NCBI GenBank assembly: GCA_000002445.1
Contig: CP000071.1
Location: 256,001-320,000 of the forward strand
DNA: 64,000 nt
Reading direction: 5' to 3'
DNA from: Trypanosoma brucei
Taxonomy: Eukaryota
The notes below the pieces were generated by a model. It ran no database searches. It saw only the letters and a program-made list of their open reading frames with translations, and was not told where the DNA came from. The translations under genes were made by a program, and so were the position numbers. This document shows, piece by piece, positions 24,032 to 51,962 of the stretch. Every line of letters starts with the position of its first letter. The first letter of the stretch is position 1.

Positions 24032-24063
<32 letters not shown>

Positions 24064-30356: not shown

Positions 30357-31094
30357 AACAACAGTTATTAAACTCCTACAAACTCTACACATATCATCAC
30401 AGAGGTTTTTTAAAAAAAAAAATGTAAGAAGCTCAATTACGTACAAACAGGAAGTTAGTTACACAAATTGAAGCTTGTAATAAGAAACACAACAATAGCG
30501 TAAAAGGAATACATGACAGGCAAAAGCCTACAACTCCACAACAAAGGCATAATACAGTTGTATGTATAAACCAATTAGAGAAAGTTGGATTGTTTGTTTT
30601 TTTTTTTTTTAAGGCCAAACAAACACAGTTCCCCACAAAAAAAGTTTCTTCACCCACACAATTAAAAAAAAAGGAACAGCTCCCCCCCCAAAAAAAAAAA
30701 ACTGCTCTCTTTCGCATCAAACCGACAAGGAAAACGCACCGAAATCTACAGGAGTGGAAAAAAAACAATAATATAAAATTTTAAAAAAAGAAAAAAAATA
30801 CAATCCTTTACAACTCTCCAAAAAAAAATTTTAGATGAAGAAAAAAAGTGTATAATACTCTTAAAAACAGGCTTTGCATGGAACTGAAAAAAATATTTAA
30901 AAAAAAAGTTGCAAACACAGAGGTAGTTAAAAAAAAAATACAAAGTATATAACATTACAACTCTAGTTTTTTTTAATTGGCAACGATAAAACCATAACGA
31001 GAAGCCTTAAGTAACACCCAACAATGACACGTTTGCGTGTATGTAATCCCTCACGCTAATCCTTGGCTGCTACACCGAAACGGTACTACTTGGA

Positions 31095-32507
31095 CTACAA
31101 AAGACCAACTAATGTGAAAGTAAGGGAAAATAATAATAAGCGTAAATTGTGGTTCTTATTGCTTGCTGCACTTCCCATTGAAGACAAACGACCTTCACCA
31201 AACTCGATCAGAGAAGCAACTCCAGCCACCTCCATCGTTTTATTCAGTTTGACCTCTTTTCTCCGCACGGCAATGCTGGCAATAGTAATCAGCTGTGTGG
31301 ATGTATTCAGATCTTCAAGCATATGAGAGACCACACGTGTGTCACTCTCCAGTCGCTCCGAGAGATTTGGAAAGTTGTCCATAAGTTTCTTCCTCATATC
31401 ATCCAGAGATTTGGGTGTCACCACCCAAGCTGTTTCCCCGCACACCTCAGCAGCCTTCTTTGCTTTCTCATCTGCAGCATTTCCAGCTATCTTCCTTAGC
31501 GTATTTTCCATGAGTGGTAGGTAATGAGCCCTTATACTTTTGAGATTCCTTGCATACCTGCTTACCTTCTTAAACACATTCTGTGCTTTACTTACTGCTT
31601 TCGCAACCTCAGCAACGGCCCGCTTCACCTGATCCATGTGTCCCCCCGGACGCTTTGCATCCGCTTGGCTCCGTTCCTCCACTTTAGAAACCATTGCAGA
31701 ACGGCTCACAGCTTGCTCCGTGAATGCGTCCACTGCACCTTTTAGGCCTCTGTACTGCTCAACCATCAAACACACTGCTTGTGTCTGATTCAGAGTAAGA
31801 TTGTACTTTCTGGTGATAGAGGCCTTTGTTCCCTCGACCAGTTCCTTCACCGTAGACTCACCTTTGAGCGCCACCGACCTCCAAGTAACGACATTGTAGA
31901 GCACAAACTCCAGCTTCCACAGCTCCCCGGAACTTTCCCGGGTGTCATCCTCCAAACCTTCCGAAGCACCCTCAGGTAACGTACTAAACAACTCCAACAG
32001 CGTACCGTTAAGGGAATCGGAAGACACGCTTTCAGCAGCTCCCTTGCATTTTTCAGCCGCGCTCCTGACTCTCCAATTGGAATTGTGTCCTGCCACCTCC
32101 TTCAACATGCGCTCTAACGCTGCTATACGATTGCTCCTGATCTCTTCAATATTCTCCGCCCTAAACTCAGTCTCAATGGATGCGGTTTCAGCTTTCTTGG
32201 CGGCCTCAGTAACGTTGGAAGCAACACGCTTCGCACGCTCGACGGGATCGGTGGCATTTCTGTTCTCCCACAAGACATCCTCAGCCAAAGTTACATATTC
32301 ATCACTCCGAGTCTTGGCATTCGATATCTTCAATGATTCGGTAGTTATCCAATATTTTAGGTCACGGACGGCATCTTTCAGTCCCCTGAACTGCTTCAGA
32401 GCATTACACAATGTAACAGTTTGCTCAAGTGTAAGATTATTGTTCTTACCAACAGCAAATGGCATGCACAGGAGTACAACTGCTGTGAAACAGGTGAATC
32501 GCGTCAT
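31095..32507 (-). CDS. Ala/Lys-rich predicted alpha-helical secreted protein with signal peptide and C-terminal hydrophobic GPI-anchor-type tail (array copy 1, 470 aa)
   Basis: The track start is a TTG; the first ATG gives MTRFTCFTAVVLLCMPFAVG, a classic signal peptide. The body is helix-favouring (A, K, E, L) with several NxS/T sites. The C-terminus GSAASNKNHNLRLLLFSLTFTLVGLL looks like an omega site plus hydrophobic tail. Confidence 0.8.
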   Translation of the reverse strand: MTRFTCFTAVVLLCMPFAVGKNNNLTLEQTVTLCNALKQFRGLKDAVRDLKYWITTESLKISNAKTRSDEYVTLAEDVLWENRNATDPVERAKRVASNVTEAAKKAETASIETEFRAENIEEIRSNRIAALERMLKEVAGHNSNWRVRSAAEKCKGAAESVSSDSLNGTLLELFSTLPEGASEGLEDDTRESSGELWKLEFVLYNVVTWRSVALKGESTVKELVEGTKASITRKYNLTLNQTQAVCLMVEQYRGLKGAVDAFTEQAVSRSAMVSKVEERSQADAKRPGGHMDQVKRAVAEVAKAVSKAQNVFKKVSRYARNLKSIRAHYLPLMENTLRKIAGNAADEKAKKAAEVCGETAWVVTPKSLDDMRKKLMDNFPNLSERLESDTRVVSHMLEDLNTSTQLITIASIAVRRKEVKLNKTMEVAGVASLIEFGEGRLSSMGSAASNKNHNLRLLLFSLTFTLVGLL

Positions 32508-32900
32508 TTGGCTCAACTCTCTCTTGGATGTGGAAATCTTGGAATGATGTTTCGTCTACAAAATGGTAAGGAAAGATAGCAACAAAAGTTGATACTATGC
32601 ATGAAATGACACGGAGAAAATGAGACCAACTGGAAGCCATAATTAGTCACTTATGCACAAGGCACAACATCTTTACGGAAAACACAACTAAAGTCGTTGA
32701 CATACATGGACTACACAACACAGAAGCAGTGATGTATATGACAGTATGCCTCAGTCACACTTCCATATGTGCATGCACGCTCATAAGCATTGCCAACTTT
32801 CTTGTTGTTCGTATCTTATCCATTCATAAAACATCCCCAACAGAGTGGCATCCATTGACAGCATGCGGTAATAAGTGCCTCCAGCAGCTGTCAGACAAGA

Positions 32901-35900
32901 TTAGTTGTGCGACGAATCACATGAGAGAGAAACATTGCTTTCCTCATCGTGATTGGGATACGCCTGCGCTTCGTCGACGGATGCCGCATGCGGATTATGA
33001 AAAGGTGGTGTGTCGTATACAGGCAGCACAGTGACTCCTTCACCGTCAACATGGGTGTGCCCGCTGTAATTTATAGTGTCTCTGCCACGAGTCGCAGTTG
33101 AGTTGAAGGGAAGCACAACGGCTTGGGGTAGTGGTAGAGGAATCGAGCGCATGGCCTGCTGCAAACGGACATAATCACTAAACTCGGCATCAACTATCGC
33201 CTGCCACTCCTCTTCCTCCCAGTTCACGAGCCGCATACGCCGCCCAGCCTCGCTTTCAAGCATAAACGTCGACTCCTCGTAGAAGTGCTGTGTAGTGGTG
33301 TAACTCATCATGTCATAACTCGTGAGCCGCGACGTATCATGAACGTCCGTCGACATCTCTGACATGGTATCATGAACGGAAACCTCGATTTCCTCACGTG
33401 TTTGCGATTGCAAGCGCCGACGCTGTGAGGCACGCCTCATATAAATGGCATTCAGCAGGTCCGGGTGATCTGCCGGTACAGTCACAGGTATTGGATTGAC
33501 ATTCACACCCCTGCCAGTCGGACCCTCATACATGCTGAATTCTCCACTGTAGTCAAATTGTAGTTCCAGTTCCTTTGCATCCACGCGGATACGCTCAATA
33601 CCGTCTGTAAAGACAAGCGCCATGTTGTAGCGGTCCCTCGCCTCCTGTAATGCGATCTGATCACGATCATCACACTCTTGCTCCTCGACAGAAGTCCAGT
33701 CCGCCCTCCCAGGAAAGTCACCGCCCCACGCAAAGTCGTCAACACCCGATGTCATGCCATCGATCATCGTCCTCGCGGTGGTATTGGTATTGGGGGAACC
33801 ATCACCAGAGTAGAACCCCAGAAGCAGTGGGTTGTTACCGCTTTCCAAATATTCGGGGTCGGGAGATGTTCCACTGATACAAGACATGTCGAGATTGTCC
33901 AGCTGCATCTTATCTGCAACGACAAGTTGTCGCTCCTCCTTCTCCTTAGAGCAGCATCGTCGCAAAAAGCACACGGCAAGCAACAACAGCAGCAGAAACA
34001 GCAACACAGCTGCCACAATAATGGCAATCACCGCCCCCATTCCCAATGGACCCCAAGCAGACCCACCACATATATCCCCACTTGCCTTCACATTACCCAA
34101 AGTAACGCAGTAGGTATTGTCTGTGAGGTCCCATGCGCAAACACTGAACTCCGTGCCCGCGGGGTAGTCTCTAATTTTGTTGTGGTTCATCCTCAACTTA
34201 CACTTGCCATCTGAGCCCTCACTGGCTTCCCCGACGGTGACGCCCTTGTCAGTGGGGTTGCAACAGTCACCCTTGATCACACGCACAACCGTCTGGCGGT
34301 GGGAAGAGTCCGGTGCACGGCACGACTCGAGTGGTGTCACCTTACAAGGTTCCACTATCGAAGGAAATACACTGACGGGTGGAATGAAGCGGAGGCTAGA
34401 GCTCAAAGGGACACTGACGACTGAACGGTTGACAGGAGTGGTAGCGCAGAAATATATCGAGTCCGTACCATTTTGCGCGGTAACAGAAACACGGCGGGCG
34501 CTTGCCGCGTCATCATCACCCACCAGTGCCCAACTTCCATGTGATTCATTTCGACGCAGGCAACTTCTGTCTGTGCTAAAACCGGGAAGCAAGCTCTCAG
34601 CATACAGGTCGTCCATCAAGTACAGAACGCCAGGAACACCAAGAAGGACGTCTCTCCCACGAATATTGTAATACGTAGGGTCAAATGTCTCAATCTGCGC
34701 AATCGGGAGGAGCTGCTTTGCCGAAGCAACACGTGCTGCTATCCCATTAGCGCTTATTTTCACAATTTTGGGACGCGTCGCACTGCCGTCAAAAACCTCC
34801 TGGCAGAGCGTCCACACACCCGCGGATGGTAACCCGGCCGCATTCACGTTCTTGAACGATATATTACCACGCGCCTCCTCGTCAGTCGTAAAGAATGGCA
34901 CCACGTCCTCACCACCACAGGAAGCATCTCGCCGCAGACGAAATGCTGAGTTTGGCGACAGAGGAATGTACACCTCTGCCTCCGTCCCCAGAACAAATGA
35001 CGACGGAAAGATGATATCAGTAGAAACCTCCACTTCCGATACAACACTGAGGTTCCCGGCGGGGGTCCCAACGCACAACGACACGGAAGGCAACCTCCCT
35101 GGAATGAAGGTCGGACCCAGTACAACGCTGCCGCTCGGCCGCACGTAACCCACAGAGTTCCCCGTCAGAGTGGTTGCGCACGCATTTTCGGAGAGATATA
35201 CGCCACGAAAGTCGGAGTTGTGTAGATACGCAAGTGGGTTCTCTGCGTCTTCCCCGGGCACTAACGAGTACAATGGCTTTGCTCCAGAGACCACAGGTGT
35301 CTGCAGTTTTGCGTGAAACCGAGCAGTGGGAACCGCCGCAGGATCGATCTTCTTCACGATGGGCGGAGTTATGATGAGAACCTCCGCTACTGGTATTGGA
35401 GGCGAGGTGGGTTGTTCCCCCAATACACATACACATTTCACGCCTGAGATACCTATTAGCGTAACCGCCTCCTCAACTGGGGTCTCTGCAAGACCGGGGG
35501 CCGCCACAATCTTCTCGCCACACACCGCGCAATCGCTTAGGTACGTGTCCGGTGTTCGGGTAGCGTAGTTCATCACTAAGTTCGCAGGCCCTAGCACCTC
35601 GCTGTCGCTATCCACACGTCCATGAATGCTAGGGTTCACAACACGGAAGTTTTCCACTGAAAGCGTCGGGCCATCTGTTGTGAAGACATACCCAGGATCC
35701 CTTATTGTGTGTGTACACACATAAAACGTAAGATTCCGATTGTACCGTGGCGTCATTGTGGCTCTGCTCTGACTAAGTACTCCATTGCAGTCACTCCTTG
35801 TGGAAAGAAAGGGACTGGTAAGGATCGCCTTGTCAATGCCATAGTCGGTTACTTGTTTCGCTGGAAGCGCCGTCACCGGCCGTACCGCAGGCTGCTTTCC

Positions 35901-38900
35901 ACCGGGGCATTCATCTAAGTGAATCAGTTGCATAGTCCCACGCATAACATACCCACCGCTTTCCCCACGCTCACAATAGTACACATCTGTCAGATCACGG
36001 TTCCGGTATTTGCACTTATCCACATGCAGCGTTGACATAGAGTTGGCTATGACCGTGTCGTACTCACTCAAGATACTGTCAGTACACGCTTCTAAGGTGG
36101 AGATCCTCACCCTCCCACTTTGAATGCCACTGGACTCCACGGTCACACTGCGACCTGCAATAATCGTCGCAGGAGTCATGTAGTGAAAAATATTGAAAGT
36201 AGATGCAGGCAACTTATCATACGCAGAAATACCGACACACACCCTGGCACCCTTCGCCACAGCTGGCGTCTTCACAATGGTAACATCCTTACTGTGTTCG
36301 CCGGAAGCAAAGGGAAAACTGTCATACGAAGCATTCGCCTCTGTGCAGTTAAGCTCTGGGGGGACAATGTAAACGGTGAGATTCGACGCCCCTATATGCA
36401 AGCTACCCCCATCAAGGGTCAAGCGAAGAGGTGTGTGCTTCCGTACGAGTGACACATTAAAGGACGCCGTAAACGGGTTAATCACCTTAAGGGGCTTCTG
36501 ACCAACAGCAACTCCCAAACGCCGCTCATCCTGCTGACACAATGCATATTCGCCTAGTAGAACATCCTCCAAGGGAGTAGTTGGCCCAGTGTAGTAGCGC
36601 TCAGTCGCCTCCTCACAAATCCTTGCATTCAGTGGGACTTTGCAGGAAGCGGCGTTGACACAGCGCACGAGGAACAAAGATGCCTTCTTAAGCAGCGGTC
36701 TTGCCACAAAATTATTCGTTGACCTACGGACAGCGTACAGAGAATCCACAGCAAAATCCTCAGCACTTACCTTCCCTCCGTACAAGTAATACGATTCATT
36801 GGTATCACCCCACCCCACGCAAACATGCAGTTCGCCAGCCTTCTGAACCACAAAAGGTTCTGCACTCCCACTTATGGGGTCAACCCAACCCTCACCGTAC
36901 ACCCTAATGCCACCACCGGGGGCACTTTGGCACGACTCAATGCTCTCGCTCACAAGAAAGCGTGTTGGCTGCAGCGCAGTCAGCGCCTCTCCTCGAAACC
37001 TCATGCTGAGGGGAAGACCAACAACGCCAATAGGTGAATCCGGCACAAGCTCTAGCTGCTGCTGTGACTGAATTAAACCTACATCTTCGTATCCATTCCC
37101 CTTCCACAGGCATACCTTCCATTTCTTCATACCAACAGCTGTGTAGACCACATACGCCGGACCCACTTCAGTAATTCTAATAGCAACGGCAGTACCATCA
37201 TCCACAATTTCGCCACAGTTCACATCACTCGTTTCCTTAAAAAGCACCTTCAGACCTTTGAGGGAGGTCTTATCAGGTACAATAAAATTGACTCGATTGC
37301 TTACGCCAACGAACACGGTCCTGGGGAATACCTCCACATCGGAAACAGCTAACATACCCGATACCCTCACTTTCCAGGCACCCCCATCACTGTCATGGTA
37401 ACCAACACATACGTACACCTTGCCAACTGTGTTGCGCATCACCGTCACGGACGCCTCCCCTTCAGCCGTTGCATTTACCTCAGAAATGGATGGTGTGCAG
37501 CTCTCACTTTCACTGAACACTATGGGCGCCTCAGGCGGTACGGCGGACACCTTGACGGGTGTACTGACACCTTTTACAATGGAAGCCGGCGACAACTCCG
37601 CAGGACCGTATACCATGACATTCCCAACGTTCGAATAGGGGCGATTCACAGGATGTTCCGTGCCCGGTGTCTTCACACACAGCACATGTCTACCCGCAGT
37701 AGAAAACGCAACGCCGTACAGGGCAGTTGCATTCATGGAGTATGTCTCCCCGACTGGTGTAAGGCAATTATCCAGGGAGAAATACCCGGTTGTTCCTGCC
37801 TTGAGAGTCACGTTGGCATCAAGATGAATCGTCTCAGCCACACCCACGAAAAGGGTCCGGTGTTTCAGTTTGTATCGCCGCGTCGCAATATTCTTCACAG
37901 GGTAGGTATATCCCTCGTCAGGTTCCTCGTCCGCTTGTAGGTCGACAGATGAGGGAGTCGCGACACACAAAGTCATGTTCGGGAGTGCGTCCTCAGGAAC
38001 TCGAAACGTGACAGAACTTGCGCCAACTCTCACATCACCTTTTGAGTTGAGTTCCTCACACTCCGGGGTTACCGATAAACCAACCGTTATCACACCACTC
38101 CGCCCCGCATTGTGGCCGCTCAACAAAACCGTCAAATCAAGTCCACTGATCACGTTGGCTTCATCAAATGATACCGTCGGTGGCGGCAGAACTGTCACAA
38201 CAGCCGCACGCGCCTTGGGGTATGCAGTCGTGCTCCCCTCAAGACACGCGTAGTACGTACCTGAAACAGGTAAGGCAACTGCACCCCCATCCGAACGCGA
38301 GCGACGCTTCTTTACTGGGGGGCCCCGATATTGGATTCCTGATGGACCATCCACACGCACAGCCCCTGTACAGTTGGAATACATGTAGAAATCAAGCACC
38401 AACTTCACATCGTTAGCAGCTGCAGTCGCTGCATCCATTGTATACTTAATGCGAGTCCCGTACCCACTGTATAGGGTCCGTGGCTGAACGCCGTACTCCC
38501 GAACAGTTACCTTGTTCTCAGATGGTGAATATAACCTGCCACCCTTGTGGTAGGGCCAACCATTACACAGAAAATAGTCACCTTTAGGCACAGAAACCTC
38601 CATATTAACAACCTGCAACGTTTCCCCACCCACGGGGTCCTGAAGGATCGGATCACATAGGGGTGACTGAGAAAAAGTTGCCCACACGAGGTTGCCTACA
38701 GCCTCCAAGCGAAATGTTTCGTTCGTGTGCCGAAGTGCATCAGTGTTGTTCGTGTCATAACGTGGCACAGCAAGTAACACAGAGGCAGGAACGACGAAAG
38801 TTTTGCCATCACTCGTGGGTACCTTAGCACAAAGATAAATTACGCTTTGGACACTCCGTGTCACTCTCACCTCCCGGTTAGAACCCAGTTCGGCAGGTGG

Positions 38901-39485
38901 CAGACCTTGAATCATGCTCACGTCGTCACAGTTTTCATTGCGGTGAAATGTAATGAAGGTTCCAACAGGCACTGCGTCGCCGAATCGAATAGTGTTGTCA
39001 ACATCACGTTTCAAATAGCGTGGTATGGCTTCAACAAGGCTCAGCTGCACAGACAAAGAAAGGGAGGGAAACGCATCACCAGCACATATATACACTTCAC
39101 GTACTTTCGTATCGTACCACGGGTCAATGCCCACATCATTGCTCGTAACCGTGAAATTACATGGCGCATTCTTGGATATTTTGCACTTGGAGCCAATGAT
39201 CTGTGTATTGTCACATGTACTCATACGCGAAACGAAAATATCTGCTTTGATACTCTGGTCCGTCGTTTCCACACTGAACGGTACGTTCACCAGCGGTTTG
39301 TTAGGTCGTAACACAAGTGATGCAGCTCCACTGCTGCATAAAAACGTTGACGACACGATGCACAGAACTGAAGCCCAAAAAGTAAAGGGCACCTTACAGC
39401 AATGTCGGTAACGTGGAGATAGAGAGGAAGCATGGCTGGTACCTGTGCCACAGTGGGTTGAGTCCCTTCTTAGAAACATTTGCAT
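32901..39485 (-). CDS. Giant type I membrane glycoprotein with a modular cysteine-rich ectodomain, one TM helix and a ~340-aa cytoplasmic tail (array copy 1, ~2194 aa)
   Basis: An uninterrupted 6.6-kb ORF. The first ATG is at 39485 (the track TTG start is at 39494). A hydrophobic signal segment (FTFWASVLCIVSSTFLCSSGAAS) follows a ~30-aa N-region. The ectodomain has more than 40 Cys and many NxS/T sites. The TM segment GAVIAIIVAAVLLFLLLLLLAVCFL is encoded at about 33940..34030, followed by a basic stop-transfer (RRCCSKEKEE). Confidence 0.8.
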   Translation of the reverse strand: MQMFLRRDSTHCGTGTSHASSLSPRYRHCCKVPFTFWASVLCIVSSTFLCSSGAASLVLRPNKPLVNVPFSVETTDQSIKADIFVSRMSTCDNTQIIGSKCKISKNAPCNFTVTSNDVGIDPWYDTKVREVYICAGDAFPSLSLSVQLSLVEAIPRYLKRDVDNTIRFGDAVPVGTFITFHRNENCDDVSMIQGLPPAELGSNREVRVTRSVQSVIYLCAKVPTSDGKTFVVPASVLLAVPRYDTNNTDALRHTNETFRLEAVGNLVWATFSQSPLCDPILQDPVGGETLQVVNMEVSVPKGDYFLCNGWPYHKGGRLYSPSENKVTVREYGVQPRTLYSGYGTRIKYTMDAATAAANDVKLVLDFYMYSNCTGAVRVDGPSGIQYRGPPVKKRRSRSDGGAVALPVSGTYYACLEGSTTAYPKARAAVVTVLPPPTVSFDEANVISGLDLTVLLSGHNAGRSGVITVGLSVTPECEELNSKGDVRVGASSVTFRVPEDALPNMTLCVATPSSVDLQADEEPDEGYTYPVKNIATRRYKLKHRTLFVGVAETIHLDANVTLKAGTTGYFSLDNCLTPVGETYSMNATALYGVAFSTAGRHVLCVKTPGTEHPVNRPYSNVGNVMVYGPAELSPASIVKGVSTPVKVSAVPPEAPIVFSESESCTPSISEVNATAEGEASVTVMRNTVGKVYVCVGYHDSDGGAWKVRVSGMLAVSDVEVFPRTVFVGVSNRVNFIVPDKTSLKGLKVLFKETSDVNCGEIVDDGTAVAIRITEVGPAYVVYTAVGMKKWKVCLWKGNGYEDVGLIQSQQQLELVPDSPIGVVGLPLSMRFRGEALTALQPTRFLVSESIESCQSAPGGGIRVYGEGWVDPISGSAEPFVVQKAGELHVCVGWGDTNESYYLYGGKVSAEDFAVDSLYAVRRSTNNFVARPLLKKASLFLVRCVNAASCKVPLNARICEEATERYYTGPTTPLEDVLLGEYALCQQDERRLGVAVGQKPLKVINPFTASFNVSLVRKHTPLRLTLDGGSLHIGASNLTVYIVPPELNCTEANASYDSFPFASGEHSKDVTIVKTPAVAKGARVCVGISAYDKLPASTFNIFHYMTPATIIAGRSVTVESSGIQSGRVRISTLEACTDSILSEYDTVIANSMSTLHVDKCKYRNRDLTDVYYCERGESGGYVMRGTMQLIHLDECPGGKQPAVRPVTALPAKQVTDYGIDKAILTSPFLSTRSDCNGVLSQSRATMTPRYNRNLTFYVCTHTIRDPGYVFTTDGPTLSVENFRVVNPSIHGRVDSDSEVLGPANLVMNYATRTPDTYLSDCAVCGEKIVAAPGLAETPVEEAVTLIGISGVKCVCVLGEQPTSPPIPVAEVLIITPPIVKKIDPAAVPTARFHAKLQTPVVSGAKPLYSLVPGEDAENPLAYLHNSDFRGVYLSENACATTLTGNSVGYVRPSGSVVLGPTFIPGRLPSVSLCVGTPAGNLSVVSEVEVSTDIIFPSSFVLGTEAEVYIPLSPNSAFRLRRDASCGGEDVVPFFTTDEEARGNISFKNVNAAGLPSAGVWTLCQEVFDGSATRPKIVKISANGIAARVASAKQLLPIAQIETFDPTYYNIRGRDVLLGVPGVLYLMDDLYAESLLPGFSTDRSCLRRNESHGSWALVGDDDAASARRVSVTAQNGTDSIYFCATTPVNRSVVSVPLSSSLRFIPPVSVFPSIVEPCKVTPLESCRAPDSSHRQTVVRVIKGDCCNPTDKGVTVGEASEGSDGKCKLRMNHNKIRDYPAGTEFSVCAWDLTDNTYCVTLGNVKASGDICGGSAWGPLGMGAVIAIIVAAVLLFLLLLLLAVCFLRRCCSKEKEERQLVVADKMQLDNLDMSCISGTSPDPEYLESGNNPLLLGFYSGDGSPNTNTTARTMIDGMTSGVDDFAWGGDFPGRADWTSVEEQECDDRDQIALQEARDRYNMALVFTDGIERIRVDAKELELQFDYSGEFSMYEGPTGRGVNVNPIPVTVPADHPDLLNAIYMRRASQRRRLQSQTREEIEVSVHDTMSEMSTDVHDTSRLTSYDMMSYTTTQHFYEESTFMLESEAGRRMRLVNWEEEEWQAIVDAEFSDYVRLQQAMRSIPLPLPQAVVLPFNSTATRGRDTINYSGHTHVDGEGVTVLPVYDTPPFHNPHAASVDEAQAYPNHDEESNVSLSCDSSHN

Positions 39486-41521: not shown

Positions 41522-42934
41522 CTACAAAAGACCAACTAATGTGAAAGTAAGGGAAAATAATAATAAGCGTAAATTGTGGTTCTTATTGCTTGCTGCACTT
41601 CCCATTGAAGACAAACGACCTTCACCAAACTCGATCAGAGAAGCAACTCCAGCCACCTCCATCGTTTTATTCAGTTTGACCTCTTTTCTCCGCACGGCAA
41701 TGCTGGCAATAGTAATCAGCTGTGTGGATGTATTCAGATCTTCAAGCATATGAGAGACCACACGTGTGTCACTCTCCAGTCGCTCCGAGAGATTTGGAAA
41801 GTTGTCCATAAGTTTCTTCCTCATATCATCCAGAGATTTGGGTGTCACCACCCAAGCTGTTCCCCCGCACACCTCAGCAGCCTTCTTTGCTTTCTCATCT
41901 GCAGCATTTCCAGCTATCTTCCTTAGCGTATTTTCCATGAGTGGTAGGTAATGAGCCCTTATACTTTTGAGATTCCTTGCATACCTGCTTACCTTCTTAA
42001 ACACATTCTGTGCTTTACTTACTGCTTTCGCAACCTCAGCAACGGCCCGCTTCACCTGATCCATGTGTCCCCCCGGACGCTTTGCATCCGCTTGGCTCCG
42101 TTCCTCCACTTTAGAAACCATTGCAGAACGGCTCACAGCTTGCTCCGTGAATGCGTCCACTGCACCTTTTAGGCCTCTGTACTGCTCAACCATCAAACAC
42201 ACTGCTTGTGTCTGATTCAGAGTAAGATTGTACTTTCTGGTGATAGAGGCCTTTGTTCCCTCGACCAGTTCCTTCACCGTAGACTCACCTTTGAGCGCCA
42301 CCGACCTCCAAGTAACGACATTGTAGAGCACAAACTCCAGCTTCCACAGCTCCCCGGAACTTTCCCGGGTGTCATCCTCCAAACCTTCCGAAGCACCCTC
42401 AGGTAACGTACTAAACAACTCCAACAGCGTACCGTTAAGGGAATCGGAAGACACGCTTTCAGCAGCTCCCTTGCATTTTTCAGCCGCGCTCCTGACTCTC
42501 CAATTGGAATTGTGTCCTGCCACCTCCTTCAACATGCGCTCTAACGCTGCTACACGATTGCTCCTGATCTCTTCAATATTCTCCGCCCTAAACTCAGTCT
42601 CAATGGATGCGGTTTCAGCTTTCTTGGCGGCCTCAGTAACGTTGGAAGCAACACGCTTCGCACGCTCGACGGGATCGGTGGCATTTCTGTTCTCCCACAA
42701 GACATCCTCAGCCAAAGTTACATATTCATCACTCCGAGTCTTGGCATTCGATATCTTCAATGATTCGGTAGTTATCCAATATTTTAGGTCACGGACGGCA
42801 TCTTTCAGTCCCCTGAACTGCTTCAGAGCATTACACAATGTAACAGTTTGCTCAAGTGTAAGATTATTGTTCTTACCAACAGCAAATGGCATGCACAGGA
42901 GTACAACTGCTGTGAAACAGGTGAATCGTGTCAT
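41522..42934 (-). CDS. Ala/Lys-rich GPI-anchor-type surface protein, array copy 2 (2 aa differences from copy 1: I->V, E->G)
   Basis: Identical to copy 1 except for two substitutions, at a 10,427-bp offset. Confidence 0.8.
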   Translation of the reverse strand: MTRFTCFTAVVLLCMPFAVGKNNNLTLEQTVTLCNALKQFRGLKDAVRDLKYWITTESLKISNAKTRSDEYVTLAEDVLWENRNATDPVERAKRVASNVTEAAKKAETASIETEFRAENIEEIRSNRVAALERMLKEVAGHNSNWRVRSAAEKCKGAAESVSSDSLNGTLLELFSTLPEGASEGLEDDTRESSGELWKLEFVLYNVVTWRSVALKGESTVKELVEGTKASITRKYNLTLNQTQAVCLMVEQYRGLKGAVDAFTEQAVSRSAMVSKVEERSQADAKRPGGHMDQVKRAVAEVAKAVSKAQNVFKKVSRYARNLKSIRAHYLPLMENTLRKIAGNAADEKAKKAAEVCGGTAWVVTPKSLDDMRKKLMDNFPNLSERLESDTRVVSHMLEDLNTSTQLITIASIAVRRKEVKLNKTMEVAGVASLIEFGEGRLSSMGSAASNKNHNLRLLLFSLTFTLVGLL

Positions 42935-43327
42935 TTGGCTCAACTCTCTCTTGGATGTGGAAATCTTGGAATGATGTTTCGTCTACAAAATGGTAAGGAA
43001 AGATAGCAACAAAAGTTGATACTATGCATGAAATGACACGGAGAAAAGGAGACCAACTGGAAGCCATAATTAGTCACTTATGCACAAGGCACAACATCTT
43101 TACGGAAAACACAACTAAAGTCGTTGACATACATGGACTACACAACACAGAAGCAGTGATGTATATGACAGTATGCCTCAGTCACACTTCCATATGTGCA
43201 TGCACGCTCATAAGCATTGCCAACTTTCTTGTTGTTCGTATCTTATCCATTCATAAAACATCCCCAACAGAGTGGCATCCATTGACAGCATGCGGTAATA
43301 AGTGCCTCCAGCAGCTGTCAGACAAGA

Positions 43328-46300
43328 TTAGTTGTGCGACGAATCACATGAGAGAGAAACATTGCTTTCCTCATCGTGATTGGGATACGCCTGCGCTTCG
43401 TCGACGGATGCCGCATGCGGATTATGAAAAGGTGGTGTGTCGTATACAGGCAGCACAGTGACTCCTTCACCGTCAACATGGGTGTGCCCGCTGTAATTTA
43501 TAGTGTCTCTGCCACGAGTCGCAGTTGAGTTGAAGGGAAGCACAACGGCTTGGGGTAGTGGTAGAGGAATCGAGCGCATGGCCTGCTGCAAACGGACATA
43601 ATCACTAAACTCGGCATCAACTATCGCCTGCCACTCCTCTTCCTCCCAGTTCACGAGCCGCATACGCCGCCCAGCCTCGCTTTCAAGCATAAACGTCGAC
43701 TCCTCGTAGAAGTGCTGTGTAGTGGTGTAACTCATCATGTCATAACTCGTGAGCCGCGACGTATCATGAACGTCCGTCGACATCTCTGACATGGTATCAT
43801 GAACGGAAACCTCGATTTCCTCACGTGTTTGCGATTGCAAGCGCCGACGCTGTGAGGCACGCCTCATATAAATGGCATTCAGCAGGTCCGGGTGATCTGC
43901 CGGTACAGTCACAGGTATTGGATTGACATTCACACCCCTGCCAGTCGGACCCTCATACATGCTGAATTCTCCACTGTAGTCAAATTGTAGTTCCAGTTCC
44001 TTTGCATCCACGCGGATACGCTCAATACCGTCTGTAAAGACAAGCGCCATGTTGTAGCGGTCCCTCGCCTCCTGTAATGCGATCTGATCACGATCATCAC
44101 ACTCTTGCTCCTCGACAGAAGTCCAGTCCGCCCTCCCAGGAAAGTCACCGCCCCACGCAAAGTCGTCAACACCCGATGTCATGCCATCGATCATCGTCCT
44201 CGCGGTGGTATTGGTATTGGGGGAACCATCACCAGAGTAGAACCCCAGAAGCAGTGGGTTGTTACCGCTTTCCAAATATTCGGGGTCGGGAGATGTTCCA
44301 CTGATACAAGACATGTCGAGATTGTCCAGCTGCATCTTATCTGCAACGACAAGTTGTCGCTCCTCCTTCTCCTTAGAGCAGCATCGTCGCAAAAAGCACA
44401 CGGCAAGCAACAACAGCAGCAGAAACAGCAACACAGCTGCCACAATAATGGCAATCACCGCCCCCATTCCCAATGGACCCCAAGCAGACCCACCACATAT
44501 ATCCCCACTTGCCTTCACATTACCCAAAGTAACGCAGTAGGTATTGTCTGTGAGGTCCCATGCGCAAACACTGAACTCCGTGCCCGCGGGGTAGTCTCTA
44601 ATTTTGTTGTGGTTCATCCTCAACTTACACTTGCCATCTGAGCCCTCACTGGCTTCCCCGACGGTGACGCCCTTGTCAGTGGGGTTGCAGCAGTCACCCT
44701 TGATCACACGCACAACCGTCTGGCGGTGGGAAGAGTCCGGTGCACGGCACGACTCGAGTGGTGTCACCTTACAAGGTTCCACTATCGAAGGAAATACACT
44801 GACGGGTGGAATGAAGCGGAGGCTAGAGCTCAAAGGGACACTGACGACTGAACGGTTGACAGGAGTGGTAGCGCAGAAATATATCGAGTCCGTACCATTT
44901 TGCGCGGTAACAGAAACACGGCGGGCGCTTGCCGCGTCATCATCACCCACCAGTGCCCAACTTCCATGTGATTCATTTCGACGCAGGCAACTTCTGTCTG
45001 TGCTAAAACCGGGAAGCAAGCTCTCAGCATACAGGTCGTCCATCAAGTACAGAACGCCAGGAACACCAAGAAGGACGTCTCTCCCACGAATATTGTAATA
45101 CGTAGGGTCAAATGTCTCAATCTGCGCAATCGGGAGGAGCTGCTTTGCCGAAGCAACACGTGCTGCTATCCCATTAGCGCTTATTTTCACAATTTTGGGA
45201 CGCGTCGCACTGCCGTCAAAAACCTCCTGGCAGAGCGTCCACACACCCGCGGATGGTAACCCGGCCGCATTCACGTTCTTGAACGATATATTACCACGCG
45301 CCTCCTCGTCAGTCGTAAAGAATGGCACCACGTCCTCACCACCACAGGAAGCATCTCGCCGCAGACGAAATGCTGAGTTTGGCGACAGAGGAATGTACAC
45401 CTCTGCCTCCGTCCCCAGAACAAATGACGACGGAAAGATGATATCAGTAGAAACCTCCACTTCCGATACAACACTGAGGTTCCCGGCGGGGGTCCCAACG
45501 CACAACGACACGGAAGGCAACCTCCCTGGAATGAAGGTCGGACCCAGTACAACGCTGCCGCTCGGCCGCACGTAACCCACAGAGTTCCCCGTCAGAGTGG
45601 TTGCGCACGCATTTTCGGAGAGATATACGCCACGAAAGTCGGAGTTGTGTAGATACGCAAGTGGGTTCTCTGCGTCTTCCCCGGGCACTAACGAGTACAA
45701 TGGCTTTGCTCCAGAGACCACAGGTGTCTGCAGTTTTGCGTGAAACCGAGCAGTGGGAACCGCCGCAGGATCGATCTTCTTCACGATGGGCGGAGTTATG
45801 ATGAGAACCTCCGCTACTGGTATTGGAGGCGAGGTGGGTTGTTCCCCCAATACACATACACATTTCACGCCTGAGATACCTATTAGCGTAACCGCCTCCT
45901 CAACTGGGGTCTCTGCAAGACCGGGGGCCGCCACAATCTTCTCGCCACACACCGCGCAATCGCTTAGGTACGTGTCCGGTGTTCGGGTAGCGTAGTTCAT
46001 CACTAAGTTCGCAGGCCCTAGCACCTCGCTGTCGCTATCCACACGTCCATGAATGCTAGGGTTCACAACACGGAAGTTTTCCACTGAAAGCGTCGGGCCA
46101 TCTGTTGTGAAGACATACCCAGGATCCCTTATTGTGTGTGTACACACATAAAACGTAAGATTCCGATTGTACCGTGGCGTCATTGTGGCTCTGCTCTGAC
46201 TAAGTACTCCATTGCAGTCACTCCTTGTGGAAAGAAAGGGACTGGTAAGGATCGCCTTGTCAATGCCATAGTCGGTTACTTGTTTCGCTGGAAGCGCCGT

Positions 46301-49300
46301 CACCGGCCGTACCGCAGGCTGCTTTCCACCGGGGCATTCATCTAAGTGAATCAGTTGCATAGTCCCACGCATAACATACCCACCGCTTTCCCCACGCTCA
46401 CAATAGTACACATCTGTCAGATCACGGTTCCGGTATTTGCACTTATCCACATGCAGCGTTGACATAGAGTTGGCTATGACCGTGTCGTACTCACTCAAGA
46501 TACTGTCAGTACACGCTTCTAAGGTGGAGATCCTCACCCTCCCACTTTGAATGCCACTGGACTCCACGGTCACACTGCGACCTGCAATAATCGTCGCAGG
46601 AGTCATGTAGTGAAAAATATTGAAAGTAGATGCAGGCAACTTATCATACGCAGAAATACCGACACACACCCTGGCACCCTTCGCCACAGCTGGCGTCTTC
46701 ACAATGGTAACATCCTTACTGTGTTCGCCGGAAGCAAAGGGAAAACTGTCATACGAAGCATTCGCCTCTGTGCAGTTAAGCTCTGGGGGGACAATGTAAA
46801 CGGTGAGATTCGACGCCCCTATATGCAAGCTACCCCCATCAAGGGTCAAGCGAAGAGGTGTGTGCTTCCGTACGAGTGACACATTAAAGGACGCCGTAAA
46901 CGGGTTAATCACCTTAAGGGGCTTCTGACCAACAGCAACTCCCAAACGCCGCTCATCCTGCTGACACAATGCATATTCGCCTAGTAGAACATCCTCCAAG
47001 GGAGTAGTTGGCCCAGTGTAGTAGCGCTCAGTCGCCTCCTCACAAATCCTTGCATTCAGTGGGACTTTGCAGGAAGCGGCGTTGACACAGCGCACGAGGA
47101 ACAAAGATGCCTTCTTAAGCAGCGGTCTTGCCACAAAATTATTCGTTGACCTACGGACAGCGTACAGAGAATCCACAGCAAAATCCTCAGCACTTACCTT
47201 CCCTCCGTACAAGTAATACGATTCATTGGTATCACCCCACCCCACGCAAACATGCAGTTCGCCAGCCTTCTGAACCACAAAAGGTTCTGCACTCCCACTT
47301 ATGGGGTCAACCCAACCCTCACCGTACACCCTAATGCCACCACCGGGGGCACTTTGGCACGACTCAATGCTCTCGCTCACAAGAAAGCGTGTTGGCTGCA
47401 GCGCAGTCAGCGCCTCTCCTCGAAACCTCATGCTGAGGGGAAGACCAACAACGCCAATAGGTGAATCCGGCACAAGCTCTAGCTGCTGCTGTGACTGAAT
47501 TAAACCTACATCTTCGTATCCATTCCCCTTCCACAGGCATACCTTCCATTTCTTCATACCAACAGCTGTGTAGACCACATACGCCGGACCCACTTCAGTA
47601 ATTCTAATAGCAACGGCAGTACCATCATCCACAATTTCGCCACAGTTCACATCACTCGTTTCCTTAAAAAGCACCTTCAGACCTTTGAGGGAGGTCTTAT
47701 CAGGTACAATAAAATTGACTCGATTGCTTACGCCAACGAACACGGTCCTGGGGAATACCTCCACATCGGAAACAGCTAACATACCCGATACCCTCACTTT
47801 CCAGGCACCCCCATCACTGTCATGGTAACCAACACATACGTACACCTTGCCAACTGTGTTGCGCATCACCGTCACGGACGCCTCCCCTTCAGCCGTTGCA
47901 TTTACCTCAGAAATGGATGGTGTGCAGCTCTCACTTTCACTGAACACTATGGGCGCCTCAGGCGGTACGGCGGACACCTTGACGGGTGTACTGACACCTT
48001 TTACAATGGAAGCCGGCGACAACTCCGCAGGACCGTATACCATGACATTCCCAACGTTCGAATAGGGGCGATTCACAGGATGTTCCGTGCCCGGTGTCTT
48101 CACACACAGCACATGTCTACCCGCAGTAGAAAACGCAACGCCGTACAGGGCAGTTGCATTCATGGAGTATGTCTCCCCGACTGGTGTAAGGCAATTATCC
48201 AGGGAGAAATACCCGGTTGTTCCTGCCTTGAGAGTCACGTTGGCATCAAGATGAATCGTCTCAGCCACACCCACGAAAAGGGTCCGGTGTTTCAGTTTGT
48301 ATCGCCGCGTCGCAATATTCTTCACAGGGTAGGTATATCCCTCGTCAGGTTCCTCGTCCGCTTGTAGGTCGACAGATGAGGGAGTCGCGACACACAAAGT
48401 CATGTTCGGGAGTGCGTCCTCAGGAACTCGAAACGTGACAGAACTTGCGCCAACTCTCACATCACCTTTTGAGTTGAGTTCCTCACACTCCGGGGTTACC
48501 GATAAACCAACCGTTATCACACCACTCCGCCCCGCATTGTGGCCGCTCAACAAAACCGTCAAATCAAGTCCACTGATCACGTTGGCTTCATCAAATGATA
48601 CCGTCGGTGGCGGCAGAACTGTCACAACAGCCGCACGCGCCTTGGGGTATGCAGTCGTGCTCCCCTCAAGACACGCGTAGTACGTACCTGAAACAGGTAA
48701 GGCAACTGCACCCCCATCCGAACGCGAGCGACGCTTCTTTACTGGGGGGCCCCGATATTGGATTCCTGATGGACCATCCACACGCACAGCCCCTGTACAG
48801 TTGGAATACATGTAGAAATCAAGCACCAACTTCACATCGTTAGCAGCTGCAGTCGCTGCATCCATTGTATACTTAATGCGAGTCCCGTACCCACTGTATA
48901 GGGTCCGTGGCTGAACGCCGTACTCCCGAACAGTTACCTTGTTCTCAGATGGTGAATATAACCTGCCACCCTTGTGGTAGGGCCAACCATTACACAGAAA
49001 ATAGTCACCTTTAGGCACAGAAACCTCCATATTAACAACCTGCAACGTTTCCCCACCCACGGGGTCCTGAAGGATCGGATCACATATGGGTGACTGAGAA
49101 AAAGTTGCCCACACGAGGTTGCCTACAGCCTCCAAGCGAAATGTTTCGTTCGTGTGCCGAAGTGCATCAGTGTTGTTCGTGTCATAACGTGGCACAGCAA
49201 GTAACACAGAGGCAGGAACGACGAAAGTTTTGCCATCACTCGTGGGTACCTTAGCACAAAGATAAATTACGCTTTGGACACTCCGTGTCACTCTCACCTC

Positions 49301-49912
49301 CCGGTTAGAACCCAGTTCGGCAGGTGGCAGACCTTGAATCATGCTCACGTCGTCACAGTTTTCATTGCGGTGAAATGTAATGAAGGTTCCAACAGGCACT
49401 GCGTCGCCGAATCGAATAGTGTTGTCAACATCACGTTTCAAATAGCGTGGTATGGCTTCAACAAGGCTCAGCTGCACAGACAAAGAAAGGGAGGGAAACG
49501 CATCACCAGCACATATATACACTTCACGTACTTTCGTATCGTACCACGGGTCAATGCCCACATCATTGCTCGTAACCGTGAAATTACATGGCGCATTCTT
49601 GGATATTTTGCACTTGGAGCCAATGATCTGTGTATTGTCACATGTACTCATACGCGAAACGAAAATATCTGCTTTGATACTCTGGTCCGTCGTTTCCACA
49701 CTGAACGGTACGTTCACCAGCGGTTTGTTAGGTCGTAACACAAGTGATGCAGCTCCACTGCTGCATAAAAACGTTGACGACACGATGCACAGAACTGAAG
49801 CCCAAAAAGTAAAGGGCACCTTACAGCAATGTCGGTAACGTGGAGATAGAGAGGAAGCATGGCTGGTACCTGTGCCACAGTGGGTTGAGTCCCTTCTTAG
49901 AAACATTTGCAT
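43328..49912 (-). CDS. Giant type I membrane glycoprotein, array copy 2 (one L->I difference seen)
   Basis: Identical to copy 1 at a 10,427-bp offset apart from SQSPLCDP vs SQSPICDP. Confidence 0.8.
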   Translation of the reverse strand: MQMFLRRDSTHCGTGTSHASSLSPRYRHCCKVPFTFWASVLCIVSSTFLCSSGAASLVLRPNKPLVNVPFSVETTDQSIKADIFVSRMSTCDNTQIIGSKCKISKNAPCNFTVTSNDVGIDPWYDTKVREVYICAGDAFPSLSLSVQLSLVEAIPRYLKRDVDNTIRFGDAVPVGTFITFHRNENCDDVSMIQGLPPAELGSNREVRVTRSVQSVIYLCAKVPTSDGKTFVVPASVLLAVPRYDTNNTDALRHTNETFRLEAVGNLVWATFSQSPICDPILQDPVGGETLQVVNMEVSVPKGDYFLCNGWPYHKGGRLYSPSENKVTVREYGVQPRTLYSGYGTRIKYTMDAATAAANDVKLVLDFYMYSNCTGAVRVDGPSGIQYRGPPVKKRRSRSDGGAVALPVSGTYYACLEGSTTAYPKARAAVVTVLPPPTVSFDEANVISGLDLTVLLSGHNAGRSGVITVGLSVTPECEELNSKGDVRVGASSVTFRVPEDALPNMTLCVATPSSVDLQADEEPDEGYTYPVKNIATRRYKLKHRTLFVGVAETIHLDANVTLKAGTTGYFSLDNCLTPVGETYSMNATALYGVAFSTAGRHVLCVKTPGTEHPVNRPYSNVGNVMVYGPAELSPASIVKGVSTPVKVSAVPPEAPIVFSESESCTPSISEVNATAEGEASVTVMRNTVGKVYVCVGYHDSDGGAWKVRVSGMLAVSDVEVFPRTVFVGVSNRVNFIVPDKTSLKGLKVLFKETSDVNCGEIVDDGTAVAIRITEVGPAYVVYTAVGMKKWKVCLWKGNGYEDVGLIQSQQQLELVPDSPIGVVGLPLSMRFRGEALTALQPTRFLVSESIESCQSAPGGGIRVYGEGWVDPISGSAEPFVVQKAGELHVCVGWGDTNESYYLYGGKVSAEDFAVDSLYAVRRSTNNFVARPLLKKASLFLVRCVNAASCKVPLNARICEEATERYYTGPTTPLEDVLLGEYALCQQDERRLGVAVGQKPLKVINPFTASFNVSLVRKHTPLRLTLDGGSLHIGASNLTVYIVPPELNCTEANASYDSFPFASGEHSKDVTIVKTPAVAKGARVCVGISAYDKLPASTFNIFHYMTPATIIAGRSVTVESSGIQSGRVRISTLEACTDSILSEYDTVIANSMSTLHVDKCKYRNRDLTDVYYCERGESGGYVMRGTMQLIHLDECPGGKQPAVRPVTALPAKQVTDYGIDKAILTSPFLSTRSDCNGVLSQSRATMTPRYNRNLTFYVCTHTIRDPGYVFTTDGPTLSVENFRVVNPSIHGRVDSDSEVLGPANLVMNYATRTPDTYLSDCAVCGEKIVAAPGLAETPVEEAVTLIGISGVKCVCVLGEQPTSPPIPVAEVLIITPPIVKKIDPAAVPTARFHAKLQTPVVSGAKPLYSLVPGEDAENPLAYLHNSDFRGVYLSENACATTLTGNSVGYVRPSGSVVLGPTFIPGRLPSVSLCVGTPAGNLSVVSEVEVSTDIIFPSSFVLGTEAEVYIPLSPNSAFRLRRDASCGGEDVVPFFTTDEEARGNISFKNVNAAGLPSAGVWTLCQEVFDGSATRPKIVKISANGIAARVASAKQLLPIAQIETFDPTYYNIRGRDVLLGVPGVLYLMDDLYAESLLPGFSTDRSCLRRNESHGSWALVGDDDAASARRVSVTAQNGTDSIYFCATTPVNRSVVSVPLSSSLRFIPPVSVFPSIVEPCKVTPLESCRAPDSSHRQTVVRVIKGDCCNPTDKGVTVGEASEGSDGKCKLRMNHNKIRDYPAGTEFSVCAWDLTDNTYCVTLGNVKASGDICGGSAWGPLGMGAVIAIIVAAVLLFLLLLLLAVCFLRRCCSKEKEERQLVVADKMQLDNLDMSCISGTSPDPEYLESGNNPLLLGFYSGDGSPNTNTTARTMIDGMTSGVDDFAWGGDFPGRADWTSVEEQECDDRDQIALQEARDRYNMALVFTDGIERIRVDAKELELQFDYSGEFSMYEGPTGRGVNVNPIPVTVPADHPDLLNAIYMRRASQRRRLQSQTREEIEVSVHDTMSEMSTDVHDTSRLTSYDMMSYTTTQHFYEESTFMLESEAGRRMRLVNWEEEEWQAIVDAEFSDYVRLQQAMRSIPLPLPQAVVLPFNSTATRGRDTINYSGHTHVDGEGVTVLPVYDTPPFHNPHAASVDEAQAYPNHDEESNVSLSCDSSHN

Positions 49913-51832
49913 AAATACCAAACGCTACAACAACCTTCTCAGTACTCGCTTATTCCCTTTCTCTCAACGTGTATGCCTTTATGCTCTTGCAGAAAACTAT
50001 TTACGGTGTGCGTATTCGCCAACCCGCGTAAACCTAAGACGATTGTGCACAGACTCCTCTGTCTCTGTCTCTCACACTAGTTCCTTACCACGCGACCCGT
50101 TTAAGAGGGAAGTGGCTAAACTATGTAAGGTGCTTATGGAATTACTACGGTACTGACCTTCACTTATCTTCGTGTACTCCGTTTAACTTTCAATTGCCCC
50201 TCCGCAGTGATGAACTCTTTTGTTTGATTTCTTCTATGGTTGCTTCTATCCTCAGTTACTATGAAGATACAGCTGTATCTATTACCTCCGTTACTCGACA
50301 AAAATGTTTCCCCGGTGAAAAAGGGATGTGCCTCTATGGATATACAAATGTATGAGTCCACAAATGTATGGATATGCAGGTGTAGAAAATATGCGACCCT
50401 ACACGTACAGCTTTTCTATGTAACGTCCTGTTGAAATGGTCCTCGTTTACTCTTATTTGTGCTTTCTCGTATCGTTGTCGATCTCCTTCCCGTTCCACAA
50501 CAGACTTTTCTCGCAATATCGCTCGCCTGTGTATCGGTAAATCAATTCACAAAACACCTTTATGGTAGGAACGGTATATCAAACTGATGAATATTTAGTG
50601 TGCGAAGCTTGAGGCTACGCTACTGATCAATGCGGACAACACGTCGGGCAGAAAACTACAGAAACTAAAACAAAAGGGCTAAAAATGCGGTAAAAAAATC
50701 TATAAACCTATGTAAATGATGGTAGCGATATATTGTCAGAGCTGCTTCGCGAAACAGAAATGGCAACTGAATGGCTAACTAAAAAAAACAAAAAAGATCT
50801 AGCAGTAATATCGCGCTGCTTCTGCACAACGTCTAAAGTGTGATGCACGGAAAGGAAGTAGTTTTTCAAGAGAAGTGCACACAAAATGGTAAGCACATGG
50901 GTGAGGAATGCGCTCCATAGACATCAATGAATAAACCCCGCGCACACAAGCAAGTGAAACGACATATCAAAAGAAGTTACAATGCAACACTTAAAGAGTA
51001 CAACATGTGCTGGTGAAGTAAAAAAAACCCACACATTCACTTTTTAAAAATGGTCAAAAGATATAATGCCCCTGAATTTATTAAGAAGAGGTGGGCATCA
51101 GGGTAGCACAGGCGGATACAACTCCAGGCCAAGAGGGCAACAAAGACATATGAACTGCAAGTGCAAACAATTACTATAATGTTTTACATTTAGCAACCGA
51201 CACACTATAAATGACCACAAGGGACTTTAACATGTCCCCGATAGATCCACCCACAATCGCTAAACGAAGTAATTCAAGCGAGCACATAAACTCACGGCAA
51301 CATTCCAAGCGTAGCAAACACAATGTAGTGGAGAGCAGACGTACAGCACCTGGAAGGCGCCATCTCAAACTCGGTACTCACTAATACATACCACACAGCT
51401 GCACAGTTCAGTCATATAATGAACATTAAACGGTTATATATATAATAACTGCTACAATAAGGAAAAAAAGGGAGGGGGGAAAGGGAAGCAATTATGAAGT
51501 CAAGACTAAATTAATACTTTACATACACAGCGGAGAATTGCACAATCTGTAAAGCGCTCACACATGTAAGTATACACAAGAAGGAGTAAACACTAAAATG
51601 AAAACACGGATGAAAATAATGAAGAAACGCTAACGCACCTGCTCACCAACACAACATAGCAGTCTACATTGCTGTATATGTGATGTGCATAAAATGTCGA
51701 GAAACTAGGAACAAACACTAAATAAAGGTACCAGAATAGCCATGCCGATACTTTAAAAGAAAAAAAGAATTTATAAAAAAATATATTAGGATCATGATTA
51801 GCATATAAAAGTGAAAACGCTATTGAAAACAA

Positions 51833-51962
51833 TGGCAACGATAAAACCATAACGAGAAGCCTTAAGTAACACCCAACAATGACACGTTTGCGTGTATGTA
51901 ATCCCTCACGCTAATCCTTGGCTGCTACACCGAAACGGTACTACTTGGACTACAAAAGACCA
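51833..51962. repeat. Partial third repeat unit (3' flank of the surface gene, ~130 bp) preceding the mosaic paralog
   Basis: Identical to 30978..31107 and 41405..41534, then diverges abruptly 3 codons before the stop of the paralog. Confidence 0.9.

Follow-up and report, generated by a model that had tools for sequence, protein, structure and literature searches.

Gene content and repeat anatomy of the locus

We analysed a 64,000-nucleotide stretch of Trypanosoma brucei DNA (contig CP000071.1, positions 256,001 to 320,000 of the forward strand; henceforth the window, in whose coordinates all positions are given) that holds a near-perfect 10.4-kb tandem duplication. Each unit carries a gene for the large membrane protein FCP1 and a gene for a small surface protein of the Fam50 family, and a third, divergent small gene lies next to the array. 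By exact-sequence look-up, each of the five proteins has an exact match on chromosome 8 (2,481,190 bp) of T. b. brucei TREU927. On these matches the locus is Tb927.8.930-Tb927.8.970, which is already annotated and published: its genes have carried identifiers since the 2005 reference genome, and both gene families have been described in print, the Fam50 array as part of the cell-surface phylome. All open reading frames (ORFs) of the locus lie on the minus strand, and its features are as follows.

31095..32507, minus strand: Tb927.8.930, 470 aa, Fam50 subfamily ii, CESP-like (exact match to XP_846930.1)
32901..39485, minus strand: Tb927.8.940 = FCP1, 2,194 aa (exact match to XP_846931.1)
41522..42934, minus strand: Tb927.8.950, 470 aa (exact match to XP_846932.1)
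43328..49912, minus strand: Tb927.8.960, second FCP1 copy, 2,194 aa (exact match to XP_846933.1)
51950..53329, minus strand: Tb927.8.970, 459-aa mosaic paralogue (exact match to XP_846934.1)
30978..41404, minus strand: tandem unit 1, 10,427 bp, holding Tb927.8.940, Tb927.8.930 and intergenic regions (self-alignment)
41405..51832, minus strand: tandem unit 2, 10,428 bp, holding Tb927.8.960 and Tb927.8.950 (self-alignment)
51833..51962, minus strand: third copy of the 130-bp "a" element (100% identical by self-BLAST; three-way alignment)
53120..53625, minus strand: 506-bp element, 296 nt of upstream sequence plus the first 210 nt of the small-gene coding sequence (self-BLAST)

The repeat aligns with itself at 99.915% identity over 10,558 columns (30978-41534 against 41405-51962), with eight mismatches and one 1-bp indel, and self-BLAST and MAFFT agree on this. 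From start to start the period is 10,427 bp, becoming 10,428 bp past the indel. The array comprises two full units plus 130 bp, ending at 51962, and its layout is a-b-a-b-a, with the 130-bp "a" element recurring at 30978-31107, 41405-41534 and 51833-51962. This element consists of the last 13 nt of the small-gene coding sequence and 117 nt of 3' flank, and it is identical behind all three small genes. Beyond it, Tb927.8.950 and Tb927.8.970 share one distal 3' flank, from which that of Tb927.8.930 diverges. The 506-bp element is likewise common to all three small genes, the copy at 53120-53625 matching 32298-32803 at 100% and 42725-43230 at 99.6% identity. In a self-comparison of the whole window the tandem repeat was the sole dominant repeat, and the unique flanks join the array cleanly at both ends.

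When coding effects were read off the MAFFT alignment, the nine differences between the units resolved into three nonsynonymous, two synonymous and three non-coding substitutions and the single indel, which is also non-coding. Tb927.8.950 differs from Tb927.8.930 by I128V, E358G and one synonymous site, and Tb927.8.960 differs from Tb927.8.940 by L276I and one synonymous site. An earlier, sequence-only reading of this DNA had thus recognised a real duplication, and its figures for unit identity (about 99.9%), unit length (10,427 to 10,428 bp) and size of the large protein (2,194 aa) agree with ours; it stopped the array too early, at 51832, and counted five of the nine differences.

The third small gene, Tb927.8.970, is a mosaic. 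Its DNA is 100% identical to that of Tb927.8.930 across the 506-bp 5' block and the 130-bp 3' block, while sliding identity between these blocks drops, with sharp boundaries, to a core of ~40-50% nucleotide identity. Accordingly, the first 70 amino acids and the last four codons are identical to those of Tb927.8.930 and the rest is diverged, giving 41% protein identity over a 458-aa BLASTP alignment that includes the identical N-terminus. An exact look-up of Tb927.8.970 gave no other contig encoding it.

Units group by genome rather than by position

We extracted the corresponding units from the assemblies of T. b. equiperdum IVM-t1, T. equiperdum OVI and T. b. gambiense DAL972 and aligned them. 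The differences were as follows.

TREU927 unit A against TREU927 unit B: 0.077%
IVM-t1 (PacBio) unit A against IVM-t1 unit B: 0.134%
TREU927 unit against IVM-t1 unit: 0.74-0.77%
TREU927 unit against DAL972 unit: 0.95-0.97%

Of the differences that separate unit A from unit B, none recurs in another strain. The same holds at the level of single genes in DAL972, whose two small genes differ from each other by 3 nt and from the TREU927 copies by 14-18 nt. Units therefore group by genome and not by position, which indicates either concerted evolution, through gene conversion or repeated unequal exchange, or duplication that recurred with identical breakpoints. The sequence-only reading had taken the near-identity as a mark of recent duplication or of homogenisation, and the grouping bears this out. 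It does not fit a single recent duplication specific to TREU927. More generally, a single very recent duplication without homogenisation, in which near-identity reflects youth alone, is decidedly improbable: it would explain why only nine differences separate the units, but IVM-t1 shares the structure with units that lie ~0.75% from those of TREU927 and 0.13% from each other. One shared duplication would have to predate the split of these strains, and the units within each genome should then differ by at least 0.75%; recurrence at identical breakpoints, in turn, is the recombination model itself.

Copy number varies between the assemblies. The IVM-t1 chromosome, assembled from PacBio reads, has two units with boundaries as in TREU927. 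The DAL972 assembly has one FCP1 and corresponds exactly to the TREU927 structure minus the interval between two copies of the 506-bp element, so that this element marks the apparent deletion or collapse junction; a reciprocal deletion would leave such a structure, as would an assembly collapse. In T. equiperdum OVI, a short-read contig of 10,387 bp spans from one 506-bp block to the next and carries the Tb927.8.970 core together with FCP1 at 99.9% identity, thereby confirming the junction between them; the OVI protein TEOVI_000123800 is identical to Tb927.8.960.

These data also bear on whether the array is an artefact, be it two alleles or one unit misassembled as a tandem pair, or a larger array that was collapsed. 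Such errors are easily made, since the repeats are 99.9% identical and longer than Sanger reads; DAL972 has a single FCP1, and the OVI contig is one repeat-bounded piece of the kind obtained when an array is left unresolved. Against this, the independent PacBio assembly reproduces the two-unit structure and its boundaries, the nine unit differences imply that the assembler had distinct read sets, and the unique flanks are joined cleanly. We therefore regard an artefact as barely credible. The caution of the sequence-only reading that the true number might not be two was reasonable, and it stands to the extent that assemblies differ (one in DAL972, two in TREU927 and IVM-t1); its concern about misassembly is weakened by the long-read assembly, which independently has two units.

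Several features of the IVM-t1 genes are recorded here as side observations. Both FCP1 copies on its chromosome 8 (L003/L004) are annotated as fragments of 891, 179 and 571 aa. We considered decay of FCP1 in this parasite, which has no procyclic stage and is not transmitted by tsetse flies, and set it aside: each frameshift reflects the loss of one base from a C6 or G4 homopolymer run, so that PacBio error is likelier. The FCP1 of T. equiperdum OVI is intact. The IVM-t1 gene resembling Tb927.8.970 (L003 3067-4645) aligns at only 88%, with 63 gap openings and ~600 nt of unmatched core, and is either degraded or badly assembled.

FCP1 is older than its Fam50 neighbours

An exhaustive search of 1.84 billion representative proteins recovered only 30 clusters of FCP1 homologues, and every named cluster is trypanosomatid (T. 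vivax, T. grayi, T. cruzi, Leishmania, Porcisia, Novymonas). The exhaustive search was needed, as a word-indexed search gave four matches even with a profile. We compared gene order around FCP1 using two single-copy genes that flank the array.

29874..30446, minus strand: ubiquitin-conjugating enzyme (UBC) gene, downstream single-copy flank and synteny anchor
55464..57272, minus strand: 602-aa ORF, upstream single-copy flank (Pfam on the DAL972 counterpart; collinearity)

The DAL972 counterpart of the 602-aa ORF has Pfam domains of the phosphoglucomutase/phosphomannomutase family, and we read the product as a putative phosphoacetylglucosamine mutase. Gene order in the three genomes compared is:

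T. b. gambiense DAL972: 602-aa gene - small gene - FCP1 - small gene - UBC
T. vivax: FCP1 homologue (42% identity) - UBC
L. tarentolae: two tandem FCP1 homologues - UBC

In T. vivax no Fam50 ORF lies between the FCP1 homologue and the UBC gene, and in L. tarentolae a Fam50 gene is likewise absent beside the FCP1 homologues. Judged by this gene order, FCP1 is an old gene in conserved trypanosomatid synteny. Because the Fam50 gene is missing beside its relatives in both species, the Fam50 neighbours must have joined it later, within the lineage of T. brucei, and the FCP1-Fam50 pairing is a derived accident of position.

The FCP1 homologue has been tandemly duplicated independently in L. tarentolae (L006 745-6672 and 10001-16750). 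The two proteins of this pair are 82% identical overall but mosaic: stretches with 99.5-100% DNA identity (L006 772-1186 and 1627-1981) and one of 3.4 kb at 97% are interspersed with diverged N-terminal domains, a pattern suggestive of gene-conversion tracts.

FCP1 is predicted to be a long adhesion-type stalk

The large gene of the locus is FCP1 itself, with sequences that are identical and show no difference from the published gene. The protein is reportedly first described by Varga et al. in PNAS in 2017. In a later paper, Tb927.8.940 is listed as FCP1 and serves as a reference marker of the flagella connector (PMC6529878); in another, FCP1 represents zone 3 of the connector of procyclic cells, interstitial between the new and the old flagellar membranes (PMC11555346). 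Both place it at one small junction per dividing cell (PMC6529878; PMC11555346), and a third reports that its depletion leads to premature severing of the flagellar connection (PMC9826329). Palmitoylation has been reported for Tb927.8.960, and in proteomics its level increased late in differentiation and in procyclic forms (PMC4765897).

Hydropathy analysis of FCP1 revealed a hydrophobic segment at ~aa 40-59, which we read as a probable signal sequence, and a single strong segment at ~aa 1809-1847 (window 33945-34061), past which a tail of ~350 residues would lie on the cytoplasmic side. This profile fits a type I topology. The ectodomain contains 19 N-glycosylation sequons, so that hydropathy and sequons together agree with the type I membrane glycoprotein proposed for the large gene by the sequence-only reading. 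At the cytoplasmic edge of the transmembrane segment lies a CFLRRCC motif (aa 1839-1845), at which the reported palmitoylation of Tb927.8.960 could plausibly take place.

The ectodomain also contains ~18 recurring cysteine pairs, 30-40 residues apart, and the paired cysteines are invariant across the Trypanosoma and Leishmania homologues. We modelled aa 430-905 with AlphaFold2 (AF2) on a 14-sequence alignment and obtained a confident model with five consecutive β-sandwich domains (predicted local distance difference test score, pLDDT, 86.5; predicted template modelling score, pTM, 0.74). A BLASTP comparison of FCP1 with itself found no internal repeats, so that the repeats are visible only through the cysteine-pair pattern and the AF2 model. 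The ectodomain is thus predicted to be a chain of immunoglobulin-like (Ig-like) β-sandwiches, five of them modelled and ~18 suggested by the cysteine pairs, and FCP1 looks like a long adhesion-type stalk outside any specific known domain family. Such a shape would fit a protein of an intermembrane junction. Likewise, the published zone-3 position fits the ectodomain, single transmembrane segment, cytoplasmic tail and juxtamembrane cysteines found here. Beyond what we found in the literature, our analysis adds the L276I difference between the copies, the confinement of all named family members to trypanosomatids, the synteny with T. vivax and Leishmania and the L. tarentolae duplication.

The small genes encode Fam50 proteins with two GARP domains

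Both types of small protein match the Pfam GARP domain (PF16731) in two stretches, Tb927.8.930 with E=6e-69 (231.9 bits, cut-off 27.4) and Tb927.8.970 with E=1e-117. Against PDB sequences, the small proteins match T. congolense GARP (2Y44, E=3e-08). Tb927.8.970 further matches a GARP domain-containing protein (6XZ6, E=2e-09) and, weakly, MISP (5VTL, E=0.0028); Tb927.8.930 also matches 2Y44 and 6XZ6, but 5VTL gives no match in this search. A conserved cysteine followed by a VTxxSL-type motif (defined by Jackson et al. 2013, PMC3605285; here VTPKSL and VTVESL) is found twice in each protein, as CKGAAESVSSDSL and CGETAWVVTPKSL in Tb927.8.930 and as CNKTTKNVTVESL and CRETAEVVTPKSL in Tb927.8.970. 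The sequence starts with a signal-like hydrophobic segment and ends in a hydrophobic tail of the glycosylphosphatidylinositol (GPI) type, and a GPI anchor has been predicted by both BigPI and FragAnchor (PMC3378594). The small genes are the same genes as those of Fam50 subfamily ii, with GARP domain, Cys plus VTxxSL motif and a putative signal peptide and GPI signal. Each protein has two tandem GARP domains; the fragments crystallised from GARP, the factor H receptor and MISP consist of a single bundle each. An AF2 model from the single sequence was all-helical but of low confidence (pLDDT 39.6) and unusable, and the three-helix-bundle fold is accordingly one that we assign by homology. A word-indexed homologue search with the small protein returned one match only.

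The Fam50 tandem array of chromosome 8 forms the sister clade of T. congolense CESP (PMC3605285), a relative that promotes adhesion, and Tb927.8.930,.950 and.970 have been named CESP-related (Fragoso et al. 2009, PMC2739429). For these genes, transcript enrichment in salivary-gland stages has been reported (PMC3378594; PMC8483307). In one dataset Tb927.8.950 is salivary-gland specific at a high level and Tb927.8.930 is preferential to salivary gland and proventriculus at a medium level (PMC3378594); in the other, among the three genes, only Tb927.8.950 and Tb927.8.970 are listed as up in salivary glands (PMC8483307). The Fam50 genes of the locus thus probably encode surface proteins of the salivary-gland stage with a predicted GPI anchor, in keeping with the GPI-type helical surface protein first proposed from the sequence, a proposal to which the GARP and Fam50 matches and the published anchor predictions lend support. 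As a side observation, the distal 3' flank could explain the difference in expression between Tb927.8.930 and Tb927.8.950, and reads that map to both copies confound these data.

An assignment of the small genes to MISP (Tb927.7.360-.440) was ruled out: their exact matches lie on chromosome 8, the 26-residue repeats are absent, and matches to 5VTL are weak (Tb927.8.970) or lacking (Tb927.8.930).

A model for the origin of the duplication

We propose that FCP1 was duplicated by unequal exchange between flanking Fam50 paralogues and that the copies have been kept alike by continued exchange or conversion, a reading to which we assign a probability of about 80%. An old, single-copy, pan-trypanosomatid gene for a membrane protein of ~2,200 aa would have become flanked, in the T. 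brucei lineage, by Fam50 paralogues sharing the 506-bp 5' block and the 130-bp 3' block. Given an ancestor with the order.970-like - FCP1 -.930, a single unequal crossover within the 130-bp block, by non-allelic homologous recombination, would duplicate FCP1 together with one Fam50 gene. Its product would have the observed order.970 - FCP1 -.950 - FCP1 -.930, with.950 matching.930. Continued unequal exchange or gene conversion could then keep the units near-identical and let copy number vary between strains. On this simplest reading, FCP1 was duplicated because it had been placed between recombining Fam50 paralogues, and the two gene types were co-duplicated by their position and not through any known joint work.

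Certain points weigh against this account. We infer the recombination step from the layout alone. The units would also group by genome if each lineage had duplicated them recently and on its own, or if an assembly or polishing procedure had homogenised the repeats, and the single FCP1 of DAL972 may be a collapsed array. The properties of FCP1, moreover, are taken second-hand from papers that cite the primary FCP1 study.

A different driver would be adaptive dosage, with FCP1 and Fam50 forming a functional cassette whose two copies are selected for expression in a genome that lacks gene-specific promoters. In trypanosomatids, multiplying a gene in tandem is an established means of raising its expression, and such a role would accord with the two units seen in both TREU927 and IVM-t1, whose assemblies are independent. 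Arrays are also formed by other Fam50 members, as five MISP genes and 14 BARP paralogues (Casas-Sanchez et al. 2023, PMC10089363). However, the stages of the two gene types differ, Tb927.8.960 peaking in procyclic forms and the Fam50 genes in the salivary gland, and a protein that marks one small junction per dividing cell has no obvious need of bulk expression. DAL972 was, furthermore, assembled with one FCP1, and neither T. vivax nor Leishmania has the pairing. Selection on a cassette thus appears unlikely, and the earlier suggestion that the parasite doses up a co-expressed pair conflicts with the distinct life stages and with the gene order of T. vivax and L. tarentolae. Dosage could still bring a benefit; the present data do not show selection for it.

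We also considered that the near-identity of the FCP1 copies is kept by selection and that array position matters for the Fam50 genes through their 3' flanks, which we hold to be very doubtful. If FCP1 bridges the flagella by homophilic trans-binding via its chain of Ig-like domains, divergence between the copies would make the junction weaker, and selection would favour gene conversion. If array position matters, the different distal 3' flanks might explain the stage profiles of near-identical coding sequences.

An ORF-poor interval elsewhere in the window

Apart from the array, we observed ~11 kb at 16000-27000 with a GC content of 27-34% and no ORF of at least 150 aa on either strand, within a gene-dense unit that is otherwise entirely on the minus strand. 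It lies between a gene for an SR-type protein with an RNA recognition motif (14276-15262) and a glutamine-rich 488-aa ORF (27743-29209) and is unusually long for an intergenic or untranslated region (UTR) of T. brucei. Only a short TATT microsatellite was seen in it, and Rfam gave no match there or anywhere else in the 64-kb window.

Comparison with known arrays and implications

Concerted evolution of tandem genes in trypanosomatids is exemplified by the tubulin, HSP70 and GP63 arrays. Like the present locus, these are near-identical within a genome and divergent between strains, vary in copy number and exchange through direct repeats; the locus differs from them in its long unit (10.4 kb), which holds two unrelated genes, and in having only two copies. 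A closer parallel in layout is the MISP array on chromosome 7 (Tb927.7.360-.440), where Fam50 genes for GPI-anchored proteins also alternate with unrelated genes for hypothetical proteins (PMC10089363). Its UTR and intergenic sequence is conserved at >99.7%, and it too has fewer copies in the DAL972 assembly (PMC10089363), T. b. gambiense being listed with only two misp homologues and TREU927 with five (PMC10089363). That array nonetheless lies on another chromosome and belongs to another Fam50 subfamily, and the MISP protein has one helical bundle plus 26-residue C-terminal repeats, unlike the small proteins studied here. To this background our analysis adds the a-b-a-b-a anatomy, the mosaic Tb927.8.970, the grouping of units by genome, the synteny of FCP1 and the Ig-like repeats predicted in its ectodomain, which may be useful in several respects.

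Designs for RNA interference, tagging or knockout must allow for two FCP1 copies that differ by one residue. RNA-seq reads are unassignable between Tb927.8.930 and Tb927.8.950, or between Tb927.8.940 and Tb927.8.960, except via distal UTR sequence, and the copy number of the locus may vary between strains. Finally, the FCP1 family also occurs in species reported to be without a flagella connector, which bears on the evolution of this structure.

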